From: Chrysomallon squamiferum
Lineage: Eukaryota; Animalia; Mollusca
DNA length: 64,000 nt
Reading direction: 5' to 3'
NCBI GenBank assembly: GCA_012295275.1
Contig: CM022671.1
Coordinates: 20,894,001-20,958,000 of the forward strand
Below the pieces are notes generated by a model. That model saw only the letters and a program-made list of their open reading frames with translations, was not told the origin of the DNA and made no database searches. Each line of letters opens with the position of its first letter. Position 1 is the first letter of the stretch. Of the stretch, positions 20,801-51,810 are shown in pieces. Position numbers and translations under genes: made by a program.

Positions 20801-21555
20801 TCACAAAGGTGTAAGAAACCTCAGGCATACACAAAACAACATCACTTGTTTACGTACGTTGCATGATCCGACTCTTAAAATAGCTGATTAGCTTCATGTG
20901 CTTCGGCGAATAATCTTTTGTGTTTTCTAATCCCTCCGATTTTGTAGTCGTCTTTTGTAATGGAAGAATCCTCCAATAGTTTCAGCAAAAAGTTTTCCAA
21001 TACTTCGTACGGCTTCCTATAGAGAGCGATATCGCAATCAGCGGCTGCAAAGCGGAAATTTTTGATGAGCATGATGGTAGCGGTGACCTTTTTATCATAC
21101 ACTCTTTCCACATTAGGCTCTTGGAAGGAACGTTTTCTTTTGAAAAGGCGCTTTTGCGGAGAACGAGACATTTGTTGTTGGGCTTCAAAACTGTGTCGTG
21201 ATTCGCTGACAGTTCTGAAACTGGCAGAAAGAAGATGATAAAATAAAATGTACTGTTTGTCAAAAGTTCTCATATTTAGCTGAGTAACGATTTTTTTATT
21301 TTTTTTATTGCAGATGAAAATATATACACCCTATAATTATTTTGCTACACGTTGTGAGTAAGTCATGTAAAAGAAAGTACCAACCCACTTTAAAATAGTA
21401 CAAAACTAAAGCGAAATCACTTTACACATGGTATTACAGCTGCAGTAAACTCGCATTTAAAGATTAAATTTGAATATGGTTAATAACATTAACCGCCAAG
21501 AAAACTAATTAAAAAAAATAATAATAATAATAATAAATAAAATAAAATAAAATAA

Positions 21556-39716: not shown

Positions 39717-42198
39717 TCTAATAGTAATCAGTAGTGGCAGTACGAGTAGTAGTAAATATTGTTGTTGTTTTCATTATTAAACTACAGTAGGCAGAGAGAG
39801 GAAAGGAATAATGAATAAATGAAGGAATGAATGAATGAAGGAATATTTAACGACTTTTGAATGTCATTTAATACTAATCGTGTATGAATTTATATATGCA
39901 TGTATGAATGAATGTATGTATGTATGTATGTATGTATGTATGTATGTATATATATTGGATATTTGTGTTTGTATGTATGTGCGTGATTGTATGTATTTAT
40001 GTATGTATCTACGTATGTATATTTGAATAAAAAGATAGATAGATAGATAGATAGATAGACAGATAGATACATAAAGAGATAGATAGATAGATAGATAGAT
40101 TAGATAGATAGATAGATAGACAGATAGATGTTTTTATAAATGCGTAAGTATGCATAACGAAGACAGCCGTTAGAGGAACAATGTTGTTAACAATTAGCAA
40201 CAAAGAAAAGTATATATCAAACTCTATGACAAATCTGTCGCAGAGCATTGTCTATAACGGTAAAGAAAAAACAATAAAGGCACCGATGTTCATCGGACCT
40301 ACGAGTTATCTTGTCTTTGTCATGTTCTGTAATCACTAAGCTACAGCATCTTTAATGATATAGTTTTTTTTTTCAAGTTTTTTTTTTCAAAGTTCGTAAA
40401 ATATTAATATAATATACTATGATCATCTCCACTAATGGAATTTGTATTGTTATTTCACTTTCTTGTTTCATTTTACCTGTCAGATTGATGAATAGTAGAT
40501 GTACAAGAGCTATTAATCAAATCCCGCAGATACATTAGAAGTATACAGATATGTAAATGTTAATTGTTTGTTTAGCTTGATCTCAAACAAAATGAAAACC
40601 ACGGTTCTGATTACGAACATGGAATAATTATGTCAATGGTCCATTTTGTCTGCGTTCATACGGAAAGCTGTGTGCTGCAATCAAAAAATATTGTCTTGTA
40701 TTGTCTTTAGTTTTCTTGAAAATGTACAGTAATAATAAATGATTTCTAAATTTAAAAGGAATGGTGATTATTATGATGATTACCAGTTAACATTCCACGC
40801 TAAAATAACATCGTGATATTTAAAGTAATATGATCCTCTTTTTCTAATCCTTTTTTCTTTCTTTTCTTTTCTCTTCTACTTTTTTTTATCTTCCTCTGTC
40901 ACTTTTTTATCTCTTCTTTACATTATTTCATCATTTTTTTTTTTACTCTGTTCATTAAATTTAAAGGGTAATTGTTTTCAAATACACTGTAACTTAATGG
41001 TAACTGAAAACGGTTGTATAATTAATTTATCAAAAAGAGGAAGTTTGTTCCACATCACAGCTGATCACTGCAAGCCGAAATCCCAGAATGTGAATGATTT
41101 CATTTTATTTGTTTCGTCAACTTGCACATTATTATTTTTTTTTTTTTTTTTTTTTTCATCAACGTAATTTCTTCAATTTTTTTTCCACAGTATTAAGAAA
41201 TGAGTGGGTTTCGGAGCTAATTATTTTTAAACATGTTCTCAGCATAAACAGCTTAATCACTTTTCACAAGACAAGCAAGAAAGTGAATATGAAAAGATGA
41301 ACATTTTCAACCAGATCATCATCGATTAGCCTCATAGAAATTGATTGAAGCAATTCTGAAATAAATTTACTCCTGCTACTATCCCCACACACACACTACT
41401 ACTACTACATCTACTACTAACATTACTACTAATACTGCTACTGTATCACCATCGTCATCATCATCATCATCATCATAATCAATATTGTACGGATATTTGG
41501 CATTGAACTCTATTCCGTTTAGAAAGCTGAGGATGTTAACAGAGATTTCTAACGTGATTTCATATTTCCATTAATTTTCCAGAGCTCAGTGTGATAACAG
41601 TTTAAATTTTAACAATAATTATTACACTCATACACAAACACAAATAAAAAAACATGCAAAAGAGATCTTTTCGTTAGTGACAAATGTGGTTATGATAGTG
41701 TGAAATAAGCCCCCATCCCCCCCCAAAAAAAAAAAAGAAAATGTCAGACAGTCCTCATACCTTTTTATTATCCCCACCTTTCATTAAAAAACAAACCCGG
41801 AATCGATCGAAACTTGATTTGGATATCCTCCGGAGTCCTGATATGATTTATGTAAACGCTGGTAAAGACCGGAAGGAGCGTTTGCGCGACGTTTTATCAA
41901 AGTGCCCAGATTGTTTGACCGCCAGCTTTTTGTCAATATGTCGATTAGGAATCAGTGTATTTACAGAGTGCGGTTTCACAGACACGAAAACGCGAAAAAC
42001 GATCCGTCAGAGATTATACACGCCGATTTGTCATTGCTGATCAATTTACTAGCACACAAATGTGATGGAACGAGGCGTAGACTATTATGGACACATAAGC
42101 AGAGTGATGTATGGACTTCATATAATGTAGACAGTGTGCTTATTGTTCTTTGGACACCAACCCATTATATTAAACGGTCAATTATTAACAAGCAGCTT

Positions 42199-42670
<472 letters not shown>

Positions 42671-43136: not shown

Positions 43137-43378
43137 TTTTAATTTATATTTATATTATTTTATTTTTTTTTTTTTGTTATTCTTTAATTATTGTTGCTGC
43201 TTTTTTTTTTCTTTCTTTTTTTTTTTTTTTTTTTCCCCCTTTAGCTACTTTTAATCCGTTTTAATGATATTTAGCCAGATCCACCTCTGATCGTCTTGCT
43301 GTTAAGTAACACAGAGGAAACACACTTTAATTAACTTCATGTACTTATTTCATTTCAGAATTACATTCGGAGAACGGA

Positions 43379-43442
43379 ATGATAACGGCGGGCTGTCTTC
43401 TGCTTCTTGTCGGCACTGTTTTAGCTCAAGCTGAAAATGCTG
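43379..43442 (+). CDS. MIP: Signal-peptide exon of PXFVamide/MIP-type precursor (MITAGCLLLLVGTVLAQAENA + 1 nt, phase 1)
   Basis: Acceptor ttatttcatttcag|A (exon starts 43359), ATG at 43379 with G at -3, hydrophobic core CLLLLVGTVLA with an A-Q-A cleavage motif, donor G|GTACGT at 43443. The leftover G is in frame with both downstream peptide exons. Confidence 0.85.
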
Positions 43443-43928
43443 GTACGTGGTAACACACAGACACATTTCTTTCAACTGCTTTTCTTCTTCTATAAATAAT
43501 ATCCAAAATTACTACATAATAATCTTCTTAATATACGAATAATTCACTTGATAATAATAATTTACCGTATTTACTCGTCTATAAGTTATACAAAGAAATA
43601 CTCGTGTATAATATAACAGAGTATTCTGGAATAATTCAATACTTTTTTAGTTTTCGTTGAGGGGTTTTCTACATATCACTTTTTGATTGGTAAGAAAAAT
43701 CGCCATACAGCTAGCTATACAGTTACTGATAAAATGAAATTATGACCATATCCATATTGACTGTTATAATTATATGTAGGTACTGTCACCGCTATAATTT
43801 TTCAAAATGCTTAAACTTTTATACTGAATTCTGATTTAAGAAAAATAAATAAATAAAAATAAATTATAATAATAATAATAATAATAATTTTTAAAATTCG
43901 TCTTATACATGAGTAAATTCGGTACTAT

Positions 43929-43979
<51 letters not shown>

Positions 43980-45725
43980 TCTTCGTATAAAAATATCTTT
44001 ACCATTTAATCATTTGTGTATTTAAATTTCGTTTTTTCTTATAAAATACTTCTTAGAGTTATTCACTTAATGTAAATAAAACGATAAAAAATATAATAAT
44101 TTGTGTTTTTAACTATTTTCTTGTTTGATATCTGTTTTAACTGATGGCACGTATTTAAATTAGTATTTTAATTTGCACATAGCAAGCGTTCTCGGTGTTG
44201 TATCAGTTTTAATGTTGTCACTATTAAATTATTTTGTTACACTGATATGTCGCATTATTTTTTTTAAATCTATTATTTGTATTACCCATGTGTATGAGTA
44301 GTGATGTTAATTCAATTACTTTGAATGTGTTTTCCTCTGTGTGTGTATATTTCTCACCTAGCCGTCGTAATAATTACTGATGGGTACTTTATAAACTCCG
44401 TTCCTACTATATGCGTTTTTTAAAGTTTTGTCTTCATAATTTTAGTTTTTGTTGTTGTTCTTATTTTCACTTTTGTATTTCATTTTTTTTTTCCGGATAT
44501 ATATATAGATGTATATATATATTAATTTTTATTTTAATAATAATAATAATAATAATAAGATTTTAATTATTATTATTATTATTATTATTATAAAACATAA
44601 TTTTACAAAAAGAAATTCACGTATTAAAATATTCTCGTTTCAAACAATATACATACCTAGAAACAAAGCAAAAACCGAATAATTAAATATCAAGAAATAT
44701 TAACAGACAAACTATACTCTTTTAATTATAGATTTTGTTTAATAAATAAAATAAAATAAAATAATATCATATATATATATATATATATATATTCCAACGA
44801 ATTGCACCAAACAGTAATTTAGTACTTGAACTCAATGCTTTGTATCTTACAGTATTCGATATGTTATGAAAGCAACAAACGTCAGAATATACTTTCTAGA
44901 CAAAGTCTTTGACCTTGATTACTTATATATCTCATAAAGGTAACGATATTTCCACCGTAAGTAATGACTGTCAATAACAACAACAAGTTTTAATCACCTT
45001 TTCAAATAATTTCCATTACTCCGGTTATCCGCTGAGGCGATTGTTCGCAAATTGTAGAAAACTATCAAATGCGAATTACGAAAACAAAAATACCCTCTGG
45101 AGATAAATATATCAGATGTCACTAAACACCGTGTAAAGTTGTGATAAACAGTTTAGCTCGAGGTCTGAGCCGAGCGAAACAACGAACTTTCTCCAAGACA
45201 ATAGTCGGAACATGAATGTGAATTACTCTCGGTAAGTTAGTCATGTTTGAACTGTTGACAGTTTGAACGGATAAATACACCAAGTAAGAGGAAGTGATTT
45301 TACTGAATAGCAGCCTCAGACAGTGTCGTAACTGTCATTATTTGACTTTTGTCTGACGGATGAAAAGCTAGAACGTTAACCGACAGCCGCATCCTGTGTT
45401 ATTGCCTCTGTAGATGACAAATTGTTCATCTTTCGATTTTTCTTTTTTTTCAAACAAACATTGGTTCAGGTGATGTTTGATTAAAGCGTTGGAATTTTAG
45501 AATCTATGGCTCAATTAAAAGACTGGTTGTTCCCGCCTAATTTCTATAATATTATATTTCTGTTGTTTTAAGGGGCTATAAGAAGACTCCCATACTTTAT
45601 AAAATGCGTTCCTAGAACATGCGTTTTTTAAAGTTTTGTCTTCATAATTTTAGTTGTTGTTTTTGTTCATATTTTCACTTTTGTAATTCAAAAGCATTTA
45701 CATTTTATATTACAATACTAAGTGC

Positions 45726-45756
<31 letters not shown>

Positions 45757-47120
45757 TTTATGTATTTAAGGGCATTCACACGTTTTATATTGCCAATACA
45801 ATTAACTCCCACCTAGCCTAAAACTTAAAAATCTCTCTCCAACATAGCCAAAATGATGTTGGGATACCTGGGCCAAATGTTTTCATAGTAAATTGGTATT
45901 AAGGGCTATGGTCCGTTTTTATATTAAGTGAATATAGCTCAGTAAATAGCAGTACTCTGGTAGTGATGTACGGTTGAGTGAATAGAATACCGCAAAATAA
46001 CTAGATGGCACTGAGTGAACAGGTAGTCATGTACAGTTTGAAAGGCCGAGCTACATAAGTCATCATGGAAGTCGAATTTATTGACAACTACAAAGGGGAC
46101 ACTTCCTTCTACACAACGAGTTTCATTTCGGGTGTAAAAACCCGATATAAAGATACCACTTATTGGCGTTGTAGGCATCACACGAGAGGTTGCCTTGCAA
46201 CAAACAACTACTCAGAATAGAGTACTATGTAAGACAGGTCTGCCACCCAACCATGCTAGTGACCCTAGGGACACATGCCAGTTCAGGACTATGCCGATGC
46301 AGCTTCATTCTATATTAACTTTTTAATTGTTTCAATGCACATGTTTGAGAACCTCTTCACGGCTGTCGGTGAATTAATGAATGAATAAATCATTTGTTTC
46401 GGTATCGAAACGACGGTGTTTCCAGGTGATTTTTTCATTACATCCAGTGTATCATCCTATACTCACGAGAATCATGCAAACATGCCATCCTCTTTAGGGA
46501 CAATGCTGATGTCCAGAGGTATTGATACATACTATAGCACGAATACAATATACTGACCAAAGTTAACCCTATACCACCCAGCTCCTACCTAGCTAAAACC
46601 CAATGTTGTTGTAATAGATTGATATGGTTCGGTTTTTGGCTAGGTAAACTGTATTTTTATTTACAAGTCATATTAAAGTAAATTCCCCAATTACTAAGTT
46701 AATGTTCAGTACGTAATAGTTTGTTTTAACATCCACATCCATTGTTTTCGCACCCCTCGGTCATTTATTACAATCGGATATCACTGCATGATTCAAAGTG
46801 ACGGTCATACTTTGAAAGAACCAAAAAAAAAATGTAACACAATCCTTACAAGACCCAGGGGTAAGGAAACGGTAAACAAATTACTTTTATATTTATACAG
46901 ATAATTGAGAAAGACATATGCAGCCGTACTAGTATGATTGCAATTTGCACAAGGAATGTGACTTGACAGGTCTTCCTCCGTCTTGCATCCAGCATTAACG
47001 ATGATGAGTACAACAAAACCTGTTTTATTAGTAACCTCTTGTCAACACATTGCTCAACTTAACGTATTAACATTTAGCTCATTTGGATGGCAGTGGAATG
47101 TATCATATGTAACAACAATC

Positions 47121-47160
<40 letters not shown>

Positions 47161-48711
47161 TTTTGAGGTATCAAATAAGCTTAAACAAAAGAGAACGATA
47201 TCCGTTAGAATTGTATTATTGGTATACTTAGCACTGATATCACCAAGGAAATTTAGGGAGATCTGAAAAGTCTGTGAACGAATATTGAACTAGACAACTA
47301 TCTTAACAAACATTGATCCACCATGTTTTTGACTTTTGCGCTTTTCTAGGATTTAATTCTGTTTAGTCGTCAGATCTGAAGGTGGCTCAGTTCAATCGGT
47401 TTTCGTCTCTCTCTTGTCTTTTCTAGGTTTTTATTTTCGTTTAGCTTAAAAGTTCGTTGAAAGGGCTGATAACAAATAATTTAATTGTTTTTTTGTTTTC
47501 CCGGCGTTTCGTTAAACACCGTTTGAATTATCAAATGAAAGTAACGATTTTTTTTTCTTTCTTTTTCTCTTGCTGAGTTTATTTCTTTTAAAAAAAAATA
47601 ATAATCTGGATAGAGAGCATGCTTTTAACAGCATTAGAGTATTAATTATTATTTTATTTATTTATTTATTTATTTATTTATTTTATTTTATTTAATTTTA
47701 TTTCGTTTTATTTTAGTTTTCATAGACAAACACATATGACAATGGAGCGTAATTTAAATATAAATCAAATATTTGAATTATTTTCAAAATTATGTAGATT
47801 TAAAAATAATTGCTTTAATATTTTTTACAAACTACAATATAAAATTACTGAGACAAATACAGCTAATTACAAGATCTTTAAAACTTTATATTTTTTCATT
47901 TACTTATTTTTTACTTATTTTTAATATTTTTCTTCTTTCTTTTAATTTCTTTATTGTTATTTTTTTCTTAAAAAAATATAAAATAGTAATAATAATGATA
48001 ATATCAATAACATTAACCTAGTAATTTTGTACACAGTAATATATTTTAAGCTTCTCGTTTTAATCTATTTTCCATGAAAAGCATTAGAGAAATCTTATAT
48101 TAAATTAAATCCATTAAATCATCTTACACAAAAGAGATTAATCTATTCTTTACGTTTATCTAATCATTGTCTCCTTCACTTTTGAATAAATATATATTTG
48201 GAAATTACTGACAGATATATTCTTGTTCCTTATCCATTAGTTTTTGCTTTAGTCAGAATAAAAGATTATTTCATTCTGATCTTTTTAAGTGGGGGTAGAT
48301 AATGGGTTGGCTTTGAATTCTTTATTTTGAAATACGTATAATTACGTTTACGTATACTGAATGTGTTAATGGAAGAAACAAAGAAATAAACTTTTTAAAC
48401 TGATAAATATTAGCTACAAAACAAGATTAGTAGTAATAATAGTGGTAGTTCCTCGTTATATAGCAGTAGCAGTAGACCTAGTAGTAATAGTAAAACTATT
48501 TTTTTTGTTTACCTGTGTATTATATATATTCCATCTTTTTTTAACTTTTTTTTCTTCTAAATTATGTCAACTTCATCAACTTGTAGCAGCATGCATGATA
48601 TTATTTATTTATAGCTGATGCCCATGCTTTTTTACTTGTTGTCAGTGCCGCTGTTTTGTTGTTGTATTTTATCGTCTGCATATCACTAATATTCACGTCA
48701 CTTTTTAATAG

Positions 48712-49481
48712 ATGGCGCCACATCACTGCAAGGCACGAGACTGCAAGCCTCGACTGCTGCGCTGCACAAAAGAGGAAAGTCGCTGGCAATGCGCGCTGCT
48801 AGCAAATTTGAAACTGAGGACGCCGGTAAACAAGATATGTATAATTTAGACAACCAGGTGAAACGAGGGAAAAGACAGGCTGACTCGGTTCTTCAAAGTA
48901 ACAAGCCAGATGGTGTTTTACATTCCACAAAAAAACGGTCGTTTGACGCACCCTACTTTGTTGGAAAACGTTACGATGCGCCTTACTTTGTTGGAAAACG
49001 TTACGATGCGCCTTACTTTGTTGGAAAACGTTACGACGCGCCTTACTTTGTTGGAAAACGTTACGACGCGCCTTACTTTGTTGGAAAGCGCTACGATGCG
49101 CCCTATTTCGTGGGCAAGCGTCAATTTGCGCCGTATTTTGTTGGGAAACGTCAAGATGAGTTTGAAGAGAATCGTGAGAGTTCTCCTTATTTTCTTACTA
49201 AACGTCAAGAAGCTCCTTATTTTGTGGGCAAACGTCAGGATGTTCCTTATTTTGTTGGCAAACGGGAAGACGAGTCACATTTGCTTGGAAAACGCCAGAG
49301 GGTTATATCTGTCCGAGAGCTTCACAATTTGGTCAGAGCGCTTCGTGTTTACGGATCACTGAGACAGTTATTTCAAACAGACAAGCGACACGTTCCAATG
49401 TTTGTCGGGAGACGAAGCAGCCCGCCAGTACAGAATAACGGAGACGCATCTATAGACAGCGATGAATACTACAAACGATAA
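48712..49481 (+). CDS. MIP: Peptide exon A: Mytilus inhibitory peptide-related (PXFVamide) prohormone; spliced product 277 aa
   Basis: Branch-like CACTAAT (48684-48690) and ctttttaatag|AT acceptor. G+AT=Asp continues as GATSLQGTRLQASTAALHKRGKSLA into the listed ORF at 48789. Ten PXFV-G-dibasic peptides: SFDAPYFVa, 5x YDAPYFVa, QFAPYFVa, QEAPYFVa, QDVPYFVa, HVPMFVa. C-terminal PXFVamide is the hallmark of molluscan MIPs (GSPMFVa, GAPMFVa). Confidence 0.92.
48942..49151 (+). repeat. Coding 30-bp tandem repeat, 7 units (F/Y-DAPYFVGKR and QFAPYFVGKR)
   Basis: Unit TACGAYGCGCCTTACTTTGTTGGAAAACGT visible directly; outer units differ mostly at synonymous sites. Confidence 0.95.
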
Positions 49482-49545
49482 AATGAATACAAAAAAAAAA
49501 AGAAAGAGAAATGTATTGTGCTTAAAGTGTACCTGTGGCGGTACG

Positions 49546-49563
49546 AATAAATAGTCTAATAAA
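49546..49563 (+). terminator. Candidate polyadenylation signals after exon A
   Basis: AATAAA at 49546-49551 and 49558-49563, 65-80 bp after the stop codon, followed by T-rich sequence. AATAAA is common in AT-rich DNA. Confidence 0.5.
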
Positions 49564-49882
49564 AGTAGAAATAAGTCCAAGCTATTATTTTATTATTTTG
49601 GGCGGCCTATCGTTAGTTATAATAACAACAATAACAACAAAAGTACTGTAACAAAAACATCTGAACGTAGCCATTTTACCTCTTTACAACTTGATCGTGT
49701 ACCCGGGGATCTGACTGCTCTATTTTTCTGACTCTATAAGAAATTTTAGAGCAAACAGATCCGCTTTGTAGACGATGACGTCACGAGTGCAGAAACATGG
49801 CAGAGGTTTCTAAACAGTATTTTTTTGCTATTGTTGTTGTTATACTTATTTACTGATTAAGACTGTCGTCTGAAAACAAACA

Positions 49883-50219
49883 CAGGTTGAGCTACCCTTA
49901 TCCGATATTCTTGGAACCGGAACTGCTTAGGACTTCGGAATGTTTAGGATTTCTGAAAGTAAGGACATAACCAAAGAAAAGGTTATTTTTTTTAGTCTAA
50001 ACCAAATTCCATTTACATTTCACATACAGCTTAAACAATTAGTAGTCTGCTGAATTTTAGTATATAATAGTTTTAATAATTTTGTGCATAAAATAAAGTT
50101 TGTGTATACTGAACCTTCCGATAACTGTAAGATATTGCCATTTCGGCTGTTCGCAAAAAGTTTGAGATTTCGAAACTTTTCGGTGGTTTTGGAATTTCGG
50201 ATAAGTGATCCTCAACCTA
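49883..50219. mobile_element. Non-autonomous pogo/Tigger-type DNA transposon resembling Tigger4/MER46 (Zombi)
   Basis: Imperfect TIRs: left CAGGTTGAGCTACCCTTATCCGA, right (revcomp) TAGGTTGAGGATCACTTATCCGA; TA on the right flank, CA on the left. Termini and internal TTTTAATAATTTTGTGCATAAAATAAAGTTTGTGTATACTGAACC match my recollection of the Tigger4/MER46 consensus. Confidence 0.75.
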
Positions 50220-50611
50220 TAAAATTTCAACATGGAAGAATACAGAATATATTTAGACTATTTCTTCATATCTCCACAGGAACACTTTAACTTCTTTCAG
50301 CCAGCCACAAAGAAAAATCCTGCGCAGTGAAATATATTTAATTTTTTTTTAACAATATTTAAACAAAACAAAAACAATAAATAAACTCAAATTTCACTTG
50401 TGAATCCAAAAACTGTGGCATTGCATTAGCGGCCTTACATTAAAAAGGCGTTCTCTAGAGCCAAGCCAAATCTACGTAATCAACATATTTCATTTTGTGA
50501 AAAAAAAAAATAAAATAAAATTATCTATAAGCATGCCAAATTTAAGTATTTATTTCTTCTTCCTGTCTTTTTTTTTTTCCTTTCTTGTATATTTATCCAT
50601 TTTTCTTTTAG

Positions 50612-51561
50612 CTGTTCAGACATCAAAATGTTTTATTCCCTTTATAGATTCTCAGCAACCAAACCTTATTAAACCTGAAACATTATCTACAGAGAAGGAA
50701 CGATTTTATGATAGATCTCTTGCCAAAAACGAGATACTCAACTTTCCGAAGAAACGTAGTCAAACTGTAGTTCCTTCGTTCTTAAGAATAAGGGCCATCC
50801 TTCCCCAAAAGAAGCAGATATCTTTCCAGTTTCATCCAAAATTCCTCGAGAAGCCTCAACCGTATCCAAAATTCGTCGAAAAGCGTCAGTTTTATCCAGA
50901 ATTCGTCGGCAAGCGTCATTTGAATCCAAAATTCGTCGAAAAGCGTCAATATTATCCAGAATTCGTCGGCAAGCGTCCATATTATCCAGAATTCGTCGGC
51001 AAGCGTCATTTGAATCCAGAATTCGTCGAAAAGCGTCCATATTATCCAGAATTCGTCGGCAAGCGTCCATATTATCCAGAATTCGTCGGCAAGCGTCATT
51101 TGAATCCAGAATTCGTCGAAAAGCGTCCATATTATCCTGAATTCGTCGGCAAGCGTCATTTGAATCCAAAATTCATCGAAAAGCCTCAATATTATCCAGA
51201 ATTCGTCGAAAAGCGTTCATATTATCCTGAATTCGTCGGCAAGCGTCATTTGTATCCAAAATTCGTCGAAAAGCGTCCATATTATCCAGAATTCGTCGGC
51301 AAGCGTCCATATTATCCAGAATTCGTCGGCAAGCGTCCATATTATCCAGAATTCGTCGGCAAGCGTCAATTGTATCCTGAAATCATCGGAAAAACAACTG
51401 ATTCTCCAAAATTCGTCGGAACAAATGATTATTATCCGGAATTCGTCGGCAAGCGTCATATGCATCTTGAAATCTTCGGAAAAACAACTGATTCTCCGAA
51501 ATTCGTCGGAACAAATGATTATTATCCGGAATTCGTTGGTAAAAGGAACAATGAACACTGA
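50612..51561 (+). CDS. Peptide exon B: second PXFVamide-type prohormone region encoding PEFVamide peptides
   Basis: Open frame with 12 PEFV-G-KR motifs (QFY-, QYY-, 7x PYY-, SYY-, 2x DYY-PEFVa). Two phase-1 acceptors are in frame with the signal exon: ttttcttttag|CT (50612) and ttccctttatag|AT (50648). Alternatively a stand-alone ORF from ATG 50533. Stop TGA at 51559-51561. Confidence 0.82.
50827..51546 (+). repeat. Coding 30-bp tandem repeat, 24 units, ending in a 90-bp higher-order duplication
   Basis: Consensus CCATATTATCCAGAATTCGTCGGCAAGCGT spanning exactly 720 bp without indels. 51367-51456 and 51457-51546 are near-copies. Confidence 0.95.
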
Positions 51562-51678
51562 ACATAGTTTTCTTTTCAGAAAATACCTGTTCTGGTAACA
51601 TTTCTAACCAAGATAATGTAAAATAATATTAATTATGTTTTATTTTATTTTCAAACAGAGAGATATTTTTTTCTTGCA

Positions 51679-51759
51679 AATAAACCCAAAACATCAAAAC
51701 CACAGTGTTTTTGACTGAAAATGAAATATGTAAAATTATAATTTAAACATATCAATAAA
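51679..51759 (+). terminator. Candidate polyadenylation signals after exon B
   Basis: AATAAA at 51679-51684 and 51754-51759, followed by GT/T-rich sequence. Confidence 0.45.
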
Positions 51760-51810
51760 TGTATTAATTTATGAATTGTATTTGTTTTATTTTTCCTCTC
51801 TCCTTCATTG

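Follow-up and report, generated by a model that had tools for sequence, protein, structure and literature searches.

The 64,000-nucleotide (nt) stretch of Chrysomallon squamiferum DNA analyzed here (assembly GCA_012295275.1, contig CM022671.1, positions 20,894,001 to 20,958,000 of the forward strand; hereafter the window) contains what is very probably a gastropod gene for Mytilus-inhibitory peptides (MIP, PxFVamide) and fulicin-type peptides (EFLGamide, TRH-type), in which a single signal-peptide exon is predicted to be joined, in phase 1, to one or the other of two peptide exons, A and B. A preliminary description of this DNA had already proposed one leader serving either of two neuropeptide exons. 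The features of the locus, numbered from the first nucleotide of the window, are as follows:

43359..43442, forward strand: signal-peptide exon, with acceptor AG at 43357-58, ATG at 43379, 21 codons plus one base, and a GT donor at 43443
43443..48711, forward strand: phase-1 intron between leader and exon A, 5.3 kb, microsatellite-rich
48712..49481, forward strand: coding part of exon A, the putative MIP/PxFVamide precursor body, with a 30-nt repeat and the conserved MIP tail
49482..49600, forward strand: post-stop stretch of exon A, with AATAAA at 49546 and 49558 and T-rich sequence behind; candidate poly(A) site, inside an inverted-repeat arm
50533..50611, forward strand: T-rich tract 5' of exon B, forming the polypyrimidine tract of acceptor 50612 and also holding an ATG and a Phe-rich hydrophobic stretch in the frame of B
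50612 or 50648..51561, forward strand: coding part of exon B, most likely a fulicin/EFLGamide-type body, with a 30-nt repeat
51562..51759, forward strand: candidate 3' untranslated region (UTR) of exon B, with AATAAA at 51679 and 51754

A script check of the coordinates gave a coding part of 64 nt for the leader exon, ending in a G at 43442 directly before the GT and, thus, in phase 1. The acceptors at 48712, 50612 and 50648 each accept this G in frame. Predicted products are 277 amino acids for leader plus A (TAA ending at 49481) and 337 (acceptor 50612) or 325 amino acids (acceptor 50648) for leader plus B (TGA ending at 51561), so that the coordinates, the phase-1 donor, the three in-frame acceptors and the product sizes of the preliminary description were all reproduced. 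In line with its statement that A and B could not both be translated from one mRNA, the two exons are read in different frames, and 29 stops interrupt the frame of A in the interval separating them, which excludes translation of both as one protein and rules out stop-codon read-through from A into B. The repeat arrays exceed chance expectation because their open reading frames (ORFs) stand out in length and comparable motifs are scarce elsewhere. The 263- and 385-codon ORFs of A and B are the only ones longer than 190 codons among 35 ORFs of at least 110 codons in the window, setting aside opposite-frame or shifted-frame ORFs over the same arrays, and just four isolated F[VLI]G[KR] motifs occur outside A and B in the six frames of the whole window. 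Comparison of the two candidate acceptors of exon B showed 15 of 17 pyrimidines and an AG-free zone of 63 nt for 50612 versus 13 of 17 and 26 nt for 50648; a YTRAY branch motif was found for neither. Apart from the ATG at 50533, the window holds no separate leader exon between A and B. An upstream noncoding exon probably precedes the signal exon. A further strong acceptor at 43245 (17/17 pyrimidines), 114 nt 5' of that of the signal exon, suggests alternative 5' UTR forms spliced from this noncoding exon.

Judged from its sequence, exon A is a MIP/PxFVamide precursor. MIP precursors are recognized by several P-x-F-V-Gly peptides between dibasic sites and by homology beyond the repeats. Exon A carries ten P-x-F-V-G units (nine PYFVG and one PMFVG), most of them flanked by dibasic sites, in a repeat of 30 nt or ten codons whose Pro, Val and Gly columns vary almost solely at silent sites, and its homology extends to the leader, the N-terminal part and the C-terminal tail. 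A word-seeded search with exon A yielded three matches among 144 candidates, while a full HMMER search gave 192 matches at E ≤ 0.001, the best 150 of which were examined. By far the top match among those listed was Gigantopelta aegis XP_041349877, annotated as ‘MIP-related peptides-like’ (E = 1.6e-108). Its leader is identical to ours at 16 of 20 residues, with a body identity of 42-44%, and runs directly into sequence matching the start of exon A; going by its sequence, the leader-to-A join is, therefore, present in the Gigantopelta gene model. The two proteins share a near-identical exon A start, [FY]DAPYFV-amide repeats and the same tail, which is also common to the MIP precursors of Batillaria, Patella, Lottia and Babylonia. 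They differ in length (467 versus 277 amino acids), the Gigantopelta protein having a doubled tail and an extra ~120-residue block that carries PMFV/PLFV peptides. In exon A this block is missing (48714-48860 compared with Gigantopelta residues ~70-190) and a single PMFV-amide remains, which may reflect a true deletion or a collapse in the assembly. Two accessions of identical sequence exist for the Gigantopelta MIP protein.

Exon B is most likely a fulicin/EFLGamide (TRH-type) exon in the wide sense, assigned by position and core motif, rather than a fulicin exon in the narrow sense. It comprises 12 Y-P-E-F-V-G units, most between dibasic sites, and seven units with Glu replacing Gly, and its 30-nt, ten-codon repeat forms a more homogeneous array than that of A. 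The seven deviating units among the 19 (50854-51273) carry GAA for GGC before Lys-Arg or Lys-Pro; all five His-Leu units are Glu-ended, in alternation with amidatable ones. The core signature of fulicin/EFLGamide peptides is E-[L/F]-[L/F/V] (PMC8398477). Placed before Gly and a basic site, this core occurs 12 times in B, as EFVG, and not at all in A. Exon B also lies 3' of the MIP region, out of frame with it and able to accept the leader through the predicted splice. The same order, a MIP part followed by an EF[VLI]G part, was found in Lottia, Physella and Mytilus edulis, whose gene models fuse the two, and in Patella caerulea the two parts occupy consecutive locus tags, the EF part having no leader of its own. 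Among 24 hand-picked fulicin-type proteins, 19 have a single PEF[IV]G peptide in the fulicin part (nine at the very end, five as YPEFIG), four lack it and one has it solely in the MIP part; exon B looks like an amplification of this peptide. No other EF[LV]G repeat exon was found in the window, including the 12 kb 3' of exon B. Although the preliminary description had taken exon B for a second PXFVamide cocktail, its position and EFV core are, thus, better accounted for by a TRH-type assignment. Activation of TRH receptors is known for annelid and nematode EFLGamide-type peptides, as cited in PMC8398477.

The narrow label was withheld because FNEFV is absent from exon B; this motif was found in several snails and is also missing from family members of Lottia, Aplysia and Deroceras. 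The fulicin of Achatina is an FNEFV-amide pentapeptide with a D-residue. A profile combining exon B with the EF parts of Lottia and Physella, which served solely to gather relatives, retrieved 136 proteins, the best 120 of them examined. Pfam gave no family above cut-off for any of nine proteins, and the ESM Atlas returned just unrelated repeat neuropeptide precursors, scoring under 0.9.

Support for a shared leader comes from relatives, in which the design that the preliminary description did not know for MIP/PXFVamide genes has in fact been published for oyster (PMC8398477) and for Platynereis and Capitella (PMC3890597). The splicing idea is, thus, probably right but not new. Crassostrea gigas LOC105328755 produces two MIP transcripts and one fulicin transcript through an alternative 3' splice junction or exon skipping, ‘as in’ Capitella, and mass spectrometry revealed its fulicin peptides (PMC8398477). 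As in the C. squamiferum locus, one gene serves MIP (PxFV/I-amide) and fulicin, with the fulicin region downstream and out of frame. The oyster gene differs in that its MIP comes in a long and a short form and that it carries (F/Y)S(E/D)FL-amide peptides, whereas exon B is a homogenized YPEFV-amide array with Glu-ended units; moreover, transcripts and mass spectrometry support the oyster isoforms, while those of C. squamiferum are predicted.

In Deroceras reticulatum, MIP2 (ARS01373) and fulicin (ARS01371) are identical over residues 1-21 (21/21) and then diverge. Twelve MIP-type/EF-type pairs with at least 11 identities in the first 40 residues were found among 260 proteins, and the Deroceras pair was the one with an identical leader; the other 11 were cross-species or chance pairs, and most matches lacked a same-species partner or an N-terminus. 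For Reishia clavigera (PMC10036341, supplement), 25 of the first 26 residues of MIP-2 and fulicin are alike as counted by eye, followed by Gly in MIP-2 and Asp in fulicin. Since codons for both start with G, this divergence point fits a phase-1 joint. Same-species MIP and fulicin precursors that share a leader and diverge right after it are a feature that Deroceras and Reishia have in common with the predicted products of our locus. Their fulicin parts contain F[NS]EF[VI]G and Y[ED]F[LV]G peptides plus a single P[EG]FIG, while exon B is essentially of the YPEFVG type alone. Babylonia, a candidate for separate MIP and fulicin genes (different contigs, leader identity 11/40), was dismissed as such because the Reishia MIP-1 leader resembles that of Babylonia MIP and the Reishia fulicin leader matches MIP-2. 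Two MIP paralogues seem to exist in neogastropods, with MIP-2 alone sharing its leader with fulicin.

Annelids show a related arrangement, with an FV-amide region followed, past a stop, by an EF-type region. In Platynereis, the latter has no Met or signal peptide of its own; the authors report no spliced EFLGa transcript in Illumina reads, EFLGa in a subset of FVa neurons and read-through as the proposed explanation (PMC3890597). The Capitella FVa/EFLGa locus has the same design, as cited in PMC8398477 and PMC3890597. In contrast to the Platynereis proposal, the frame difference and the 29 stops make our locus a case to which read-through cannot apply. A parallel is found in bugs, where a TRH-type EFLa exon borrows the leader of Prohormone-4 (PMC7294237). 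The Lymnaea FMRFamide gene, with a shared leader and mutually exclusive peptide exons, is an analogy only, the orthologous precedent being the MIP/fulicin gene. A shared leader with mutually exclusive peptide exons also characterizes vertebrate calcitonin/CGRP, again analogous and not orthologous.

Several observations weigh against reading the locus as a spliced MIP/fulicin gene. With regard to family, a search with exon B alone gave one match among 52 candidates, an annelid FV-amide protein (E = 1.8e-4), and no fulicin. When exon B was scored against 261 collected proteins, GSEFLG-type and MIP-type repeats outranked named fulicins. Exon B has none of the F[NST]EF[VIL]G or Y[ED]F[LV]G peptides that usually mark gastropod fulicins, PEF[IV]G also occurs once in 25 MIP-type precursors, and the named fulicins retrieved by the profile were obtained by construction, as it contained the Lottia and Physella fulicin-type parts. 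The exon-B searches revealed neither a second isoform of the Gigantopelta protein nor a leader-plus-B protein in a close relative. With regard to splicing, RNA was compared over 50200-51780 using contigs of the four listed runs, two of which contain the stretch. Three are RNA; the fourth covers noncoding sequence and crosses both 50612 and 50648 and, thus, behaves as DNA. One RNA run contributed a 265-nt contig (depth 2, no mismatch) at 50712-50976 inside exon B, which reaches neither acceptor and could derive from spliced B mRNA, from the 3' UTR of an A-type mRNA or from DNA. The other two RNA runs had nothing on exon B, just a dispersed repeat near 50235-50290, and no RNA cover of the candidate 3' UTR of exon B was seen in the four runs; in both cases missing cover is no evidence of absence. 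None of the four runs contained junction reads within the compared interval. The proposal of one leader serving either exon is, therefore, well supported by oyster, Deroceras and Reishia, while for C. squamiferum, whose RNA provided no joint, we infer splicing from these relatives. A B-without-A content of the run with the exon B contig could not be claimed, as the contig explains 0.084 of its words versus a listed share of 0.13.

A last adverse point, missed by the preliminary description, is an in-frame ATG at 50533 in a B frame that is open from 50404. It raises the alternative that exon B, behind the MIP gene, forms an intronless gene by itself or an isoform with an internal start, and has a Phe-rich signal peptide of its own. 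The stretch after this ATG reaches a mean hydropathy of 2.74 over ten residues, compared with 2.88 for the real leader, and of the 44 other acceptor-like sites in the window that are rich in pyrimidines, none has a comparable upstream ATG. However, the stretch is also the polypyrimidine tract that the acceptor requires (63 of 115 positions are T), and 20,000 shuffles of the T-rich tract with the ATG kept left the frame open in 23% and both open and hydrophobic in 12%. It further contains a long T homopolymer, which would be unstable in coding DNA, and the relatives named above use the shared leader instead of a private start. We consider this alternative quite unlikely. Duplication offers a different account of exon B, in which splicing proceeds as proposed but B arose as a lineage-specific copy of the MIP exon, its PxFV-amide having Glu as x, while the fulicin exon has been lost or lies elsewhere. 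The units of A and B are both 30 nt or ten codons long with P, F, V, G and K in the same register, and the lack of a classic fulicin peptide in B, whole-sequence scores that do not favor fulicins and the single PEF[IV]G of MIP-type precursors (from bivalves where named) agree with this origin. Yet the commonest A and B units match at just 16 of 30 bases, distributed over codon positions as 6, 8 and 2 of 10, which argues against a recent duplication. In addition, B has no counterpart of the MIP tail common to A and the Batillaria, Babylonia, Patella and Gigantopelta proteins and occupies the slot that fulicin holds in oyster, Lottia, Physella and Mytilus, with no further EF exon within 12 kb. 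A duplicate origin is, on this evidence, very unlikely.

That exon B reaches transcripts solely as 3' UTR of the MIP mRNA, or is decaying and no longer translated, is highly improbable. Such a fate would be compatible with the Glu found in place of the amide-donor Gly in seven of 19 units, with the oyster and Platynereis MIP/FVa mRNAs that carry the fulicin region past the stop and with the Platynereis Illumina reads, in which no spliced EFLGa transcript was found. Against it stand 303 codons open from the acceptor of B, including the nonrepetitive first part, and 12 intact amidation sites. The Gly/Glu exchange is a two-base change that tracks unit type, as in the Glu-ended His-Leu units, and not random decay, and in oyster the fulicin peptides have been seen by mass spectrometry.

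Stops and AATAAA signals are present for each exon, as the preliminary description had noted, but the signals are weak evidence of separate mRNA ends because AATAAA occurs at 2.5 per kb on this strand of the window. As the oyster and Platynereis MIP/FVa mRNAs hold the fulicin/EF region behind the stop, in the 3' UTR (PMC8398477 and PMC3890597), a choice between 3' splice sites, with one common 3' end, is at least as likely as alternative polyadenylation. An inverted repeat lies between the stop of A and exon B (49522-49593 and 50219-50290; 72 nt, 71% complementary, core 33/38). Its first arm holds both AATAAA signals that follow A, and the second is a dispersed repeat with very high depth and many loose ends. 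The duplex energy of -45.8 kcal/mol lies below that of all 881 control windows (best -34.5), for a pair that was chosen for its complementarity. The repeat could mask the poly(A) site of A or represent two old copies of a mobile element.

Under the favored MIP/fulicin model, joining donor 43442 to 48712 would yield the 277-amino-acid MIP precursor, its mRNA ending at the AATAAA of A or continuing with B as 3' UTR. Skipping of A and use of 50612 or 50648 would instead produce the fulicin-type precursor of 337 or 325 amino acids. From A, convertase cleavage at KR and amidation would then release about ten PxFV-amides; from B they would release up to 12 YPEFV-amides, whose likely target is the TRH-type receptor, while the Glu-ended units would give unamidated by-products. 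A neuron-specific exon choice is plausible.

The gene would add a gastropod, probably one close to Gigantopelta, to the molluscs and annelids that obtain MIP and TRH-type fulicin from one gene. Loci of this kind are often mishandled by gene predictors, which fuse the exons (Lottia, Physella and Mytilus edulis) or leave the second without a leader (Patella). What remains peculiar here is the peptide set of exon B and its possible private start. A more speculative scenario, which we regard as rather unlikely, combines the two. In this snail lineage, the TRH-type exon would have lost the usual fulicin peptides and amplified a YPEFV-amide that conforms to the MIP core (PxFV-amide) as well as to the TRH-type core (EFV-amide), with nonamidatable Glu-ended units in between, so that one peptide could act on both receptor systems; the exon may also start at its own ATG in the T-rich tract, without the shared leader. 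Titles and the beginnings of abstracts in the literature contained nothing on an exon dominated by YPEFV, a weak indication given that subscription papers and most supplements lay outside this scope. A dual-motif peptide would be convenient for probing the MIP receptor, which a 2018 paper called unknown (PMC6188537).

No other genes were recognized in the 64-kb window among ORFs of at least 110 codons using Pfam; nonrepetitive ORFs of 151, 113 and 112 codons, including those at 20875-21330 (reverse strand) and 41699-42204 (forward strand), gave no Pfam match. The intron downstream of the leader contains a 51-codon frame (46065-46217) with a YWRC..H...C motif, which had no Pfam match at E 0.1 and is reminiscent of an FLYWCH/MULE transposon zinc finger. 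The same intron carries a 98-nt direct repeat (44385-44482 and 45593-45690), its copies 91% identical and 1.2 kb apart.

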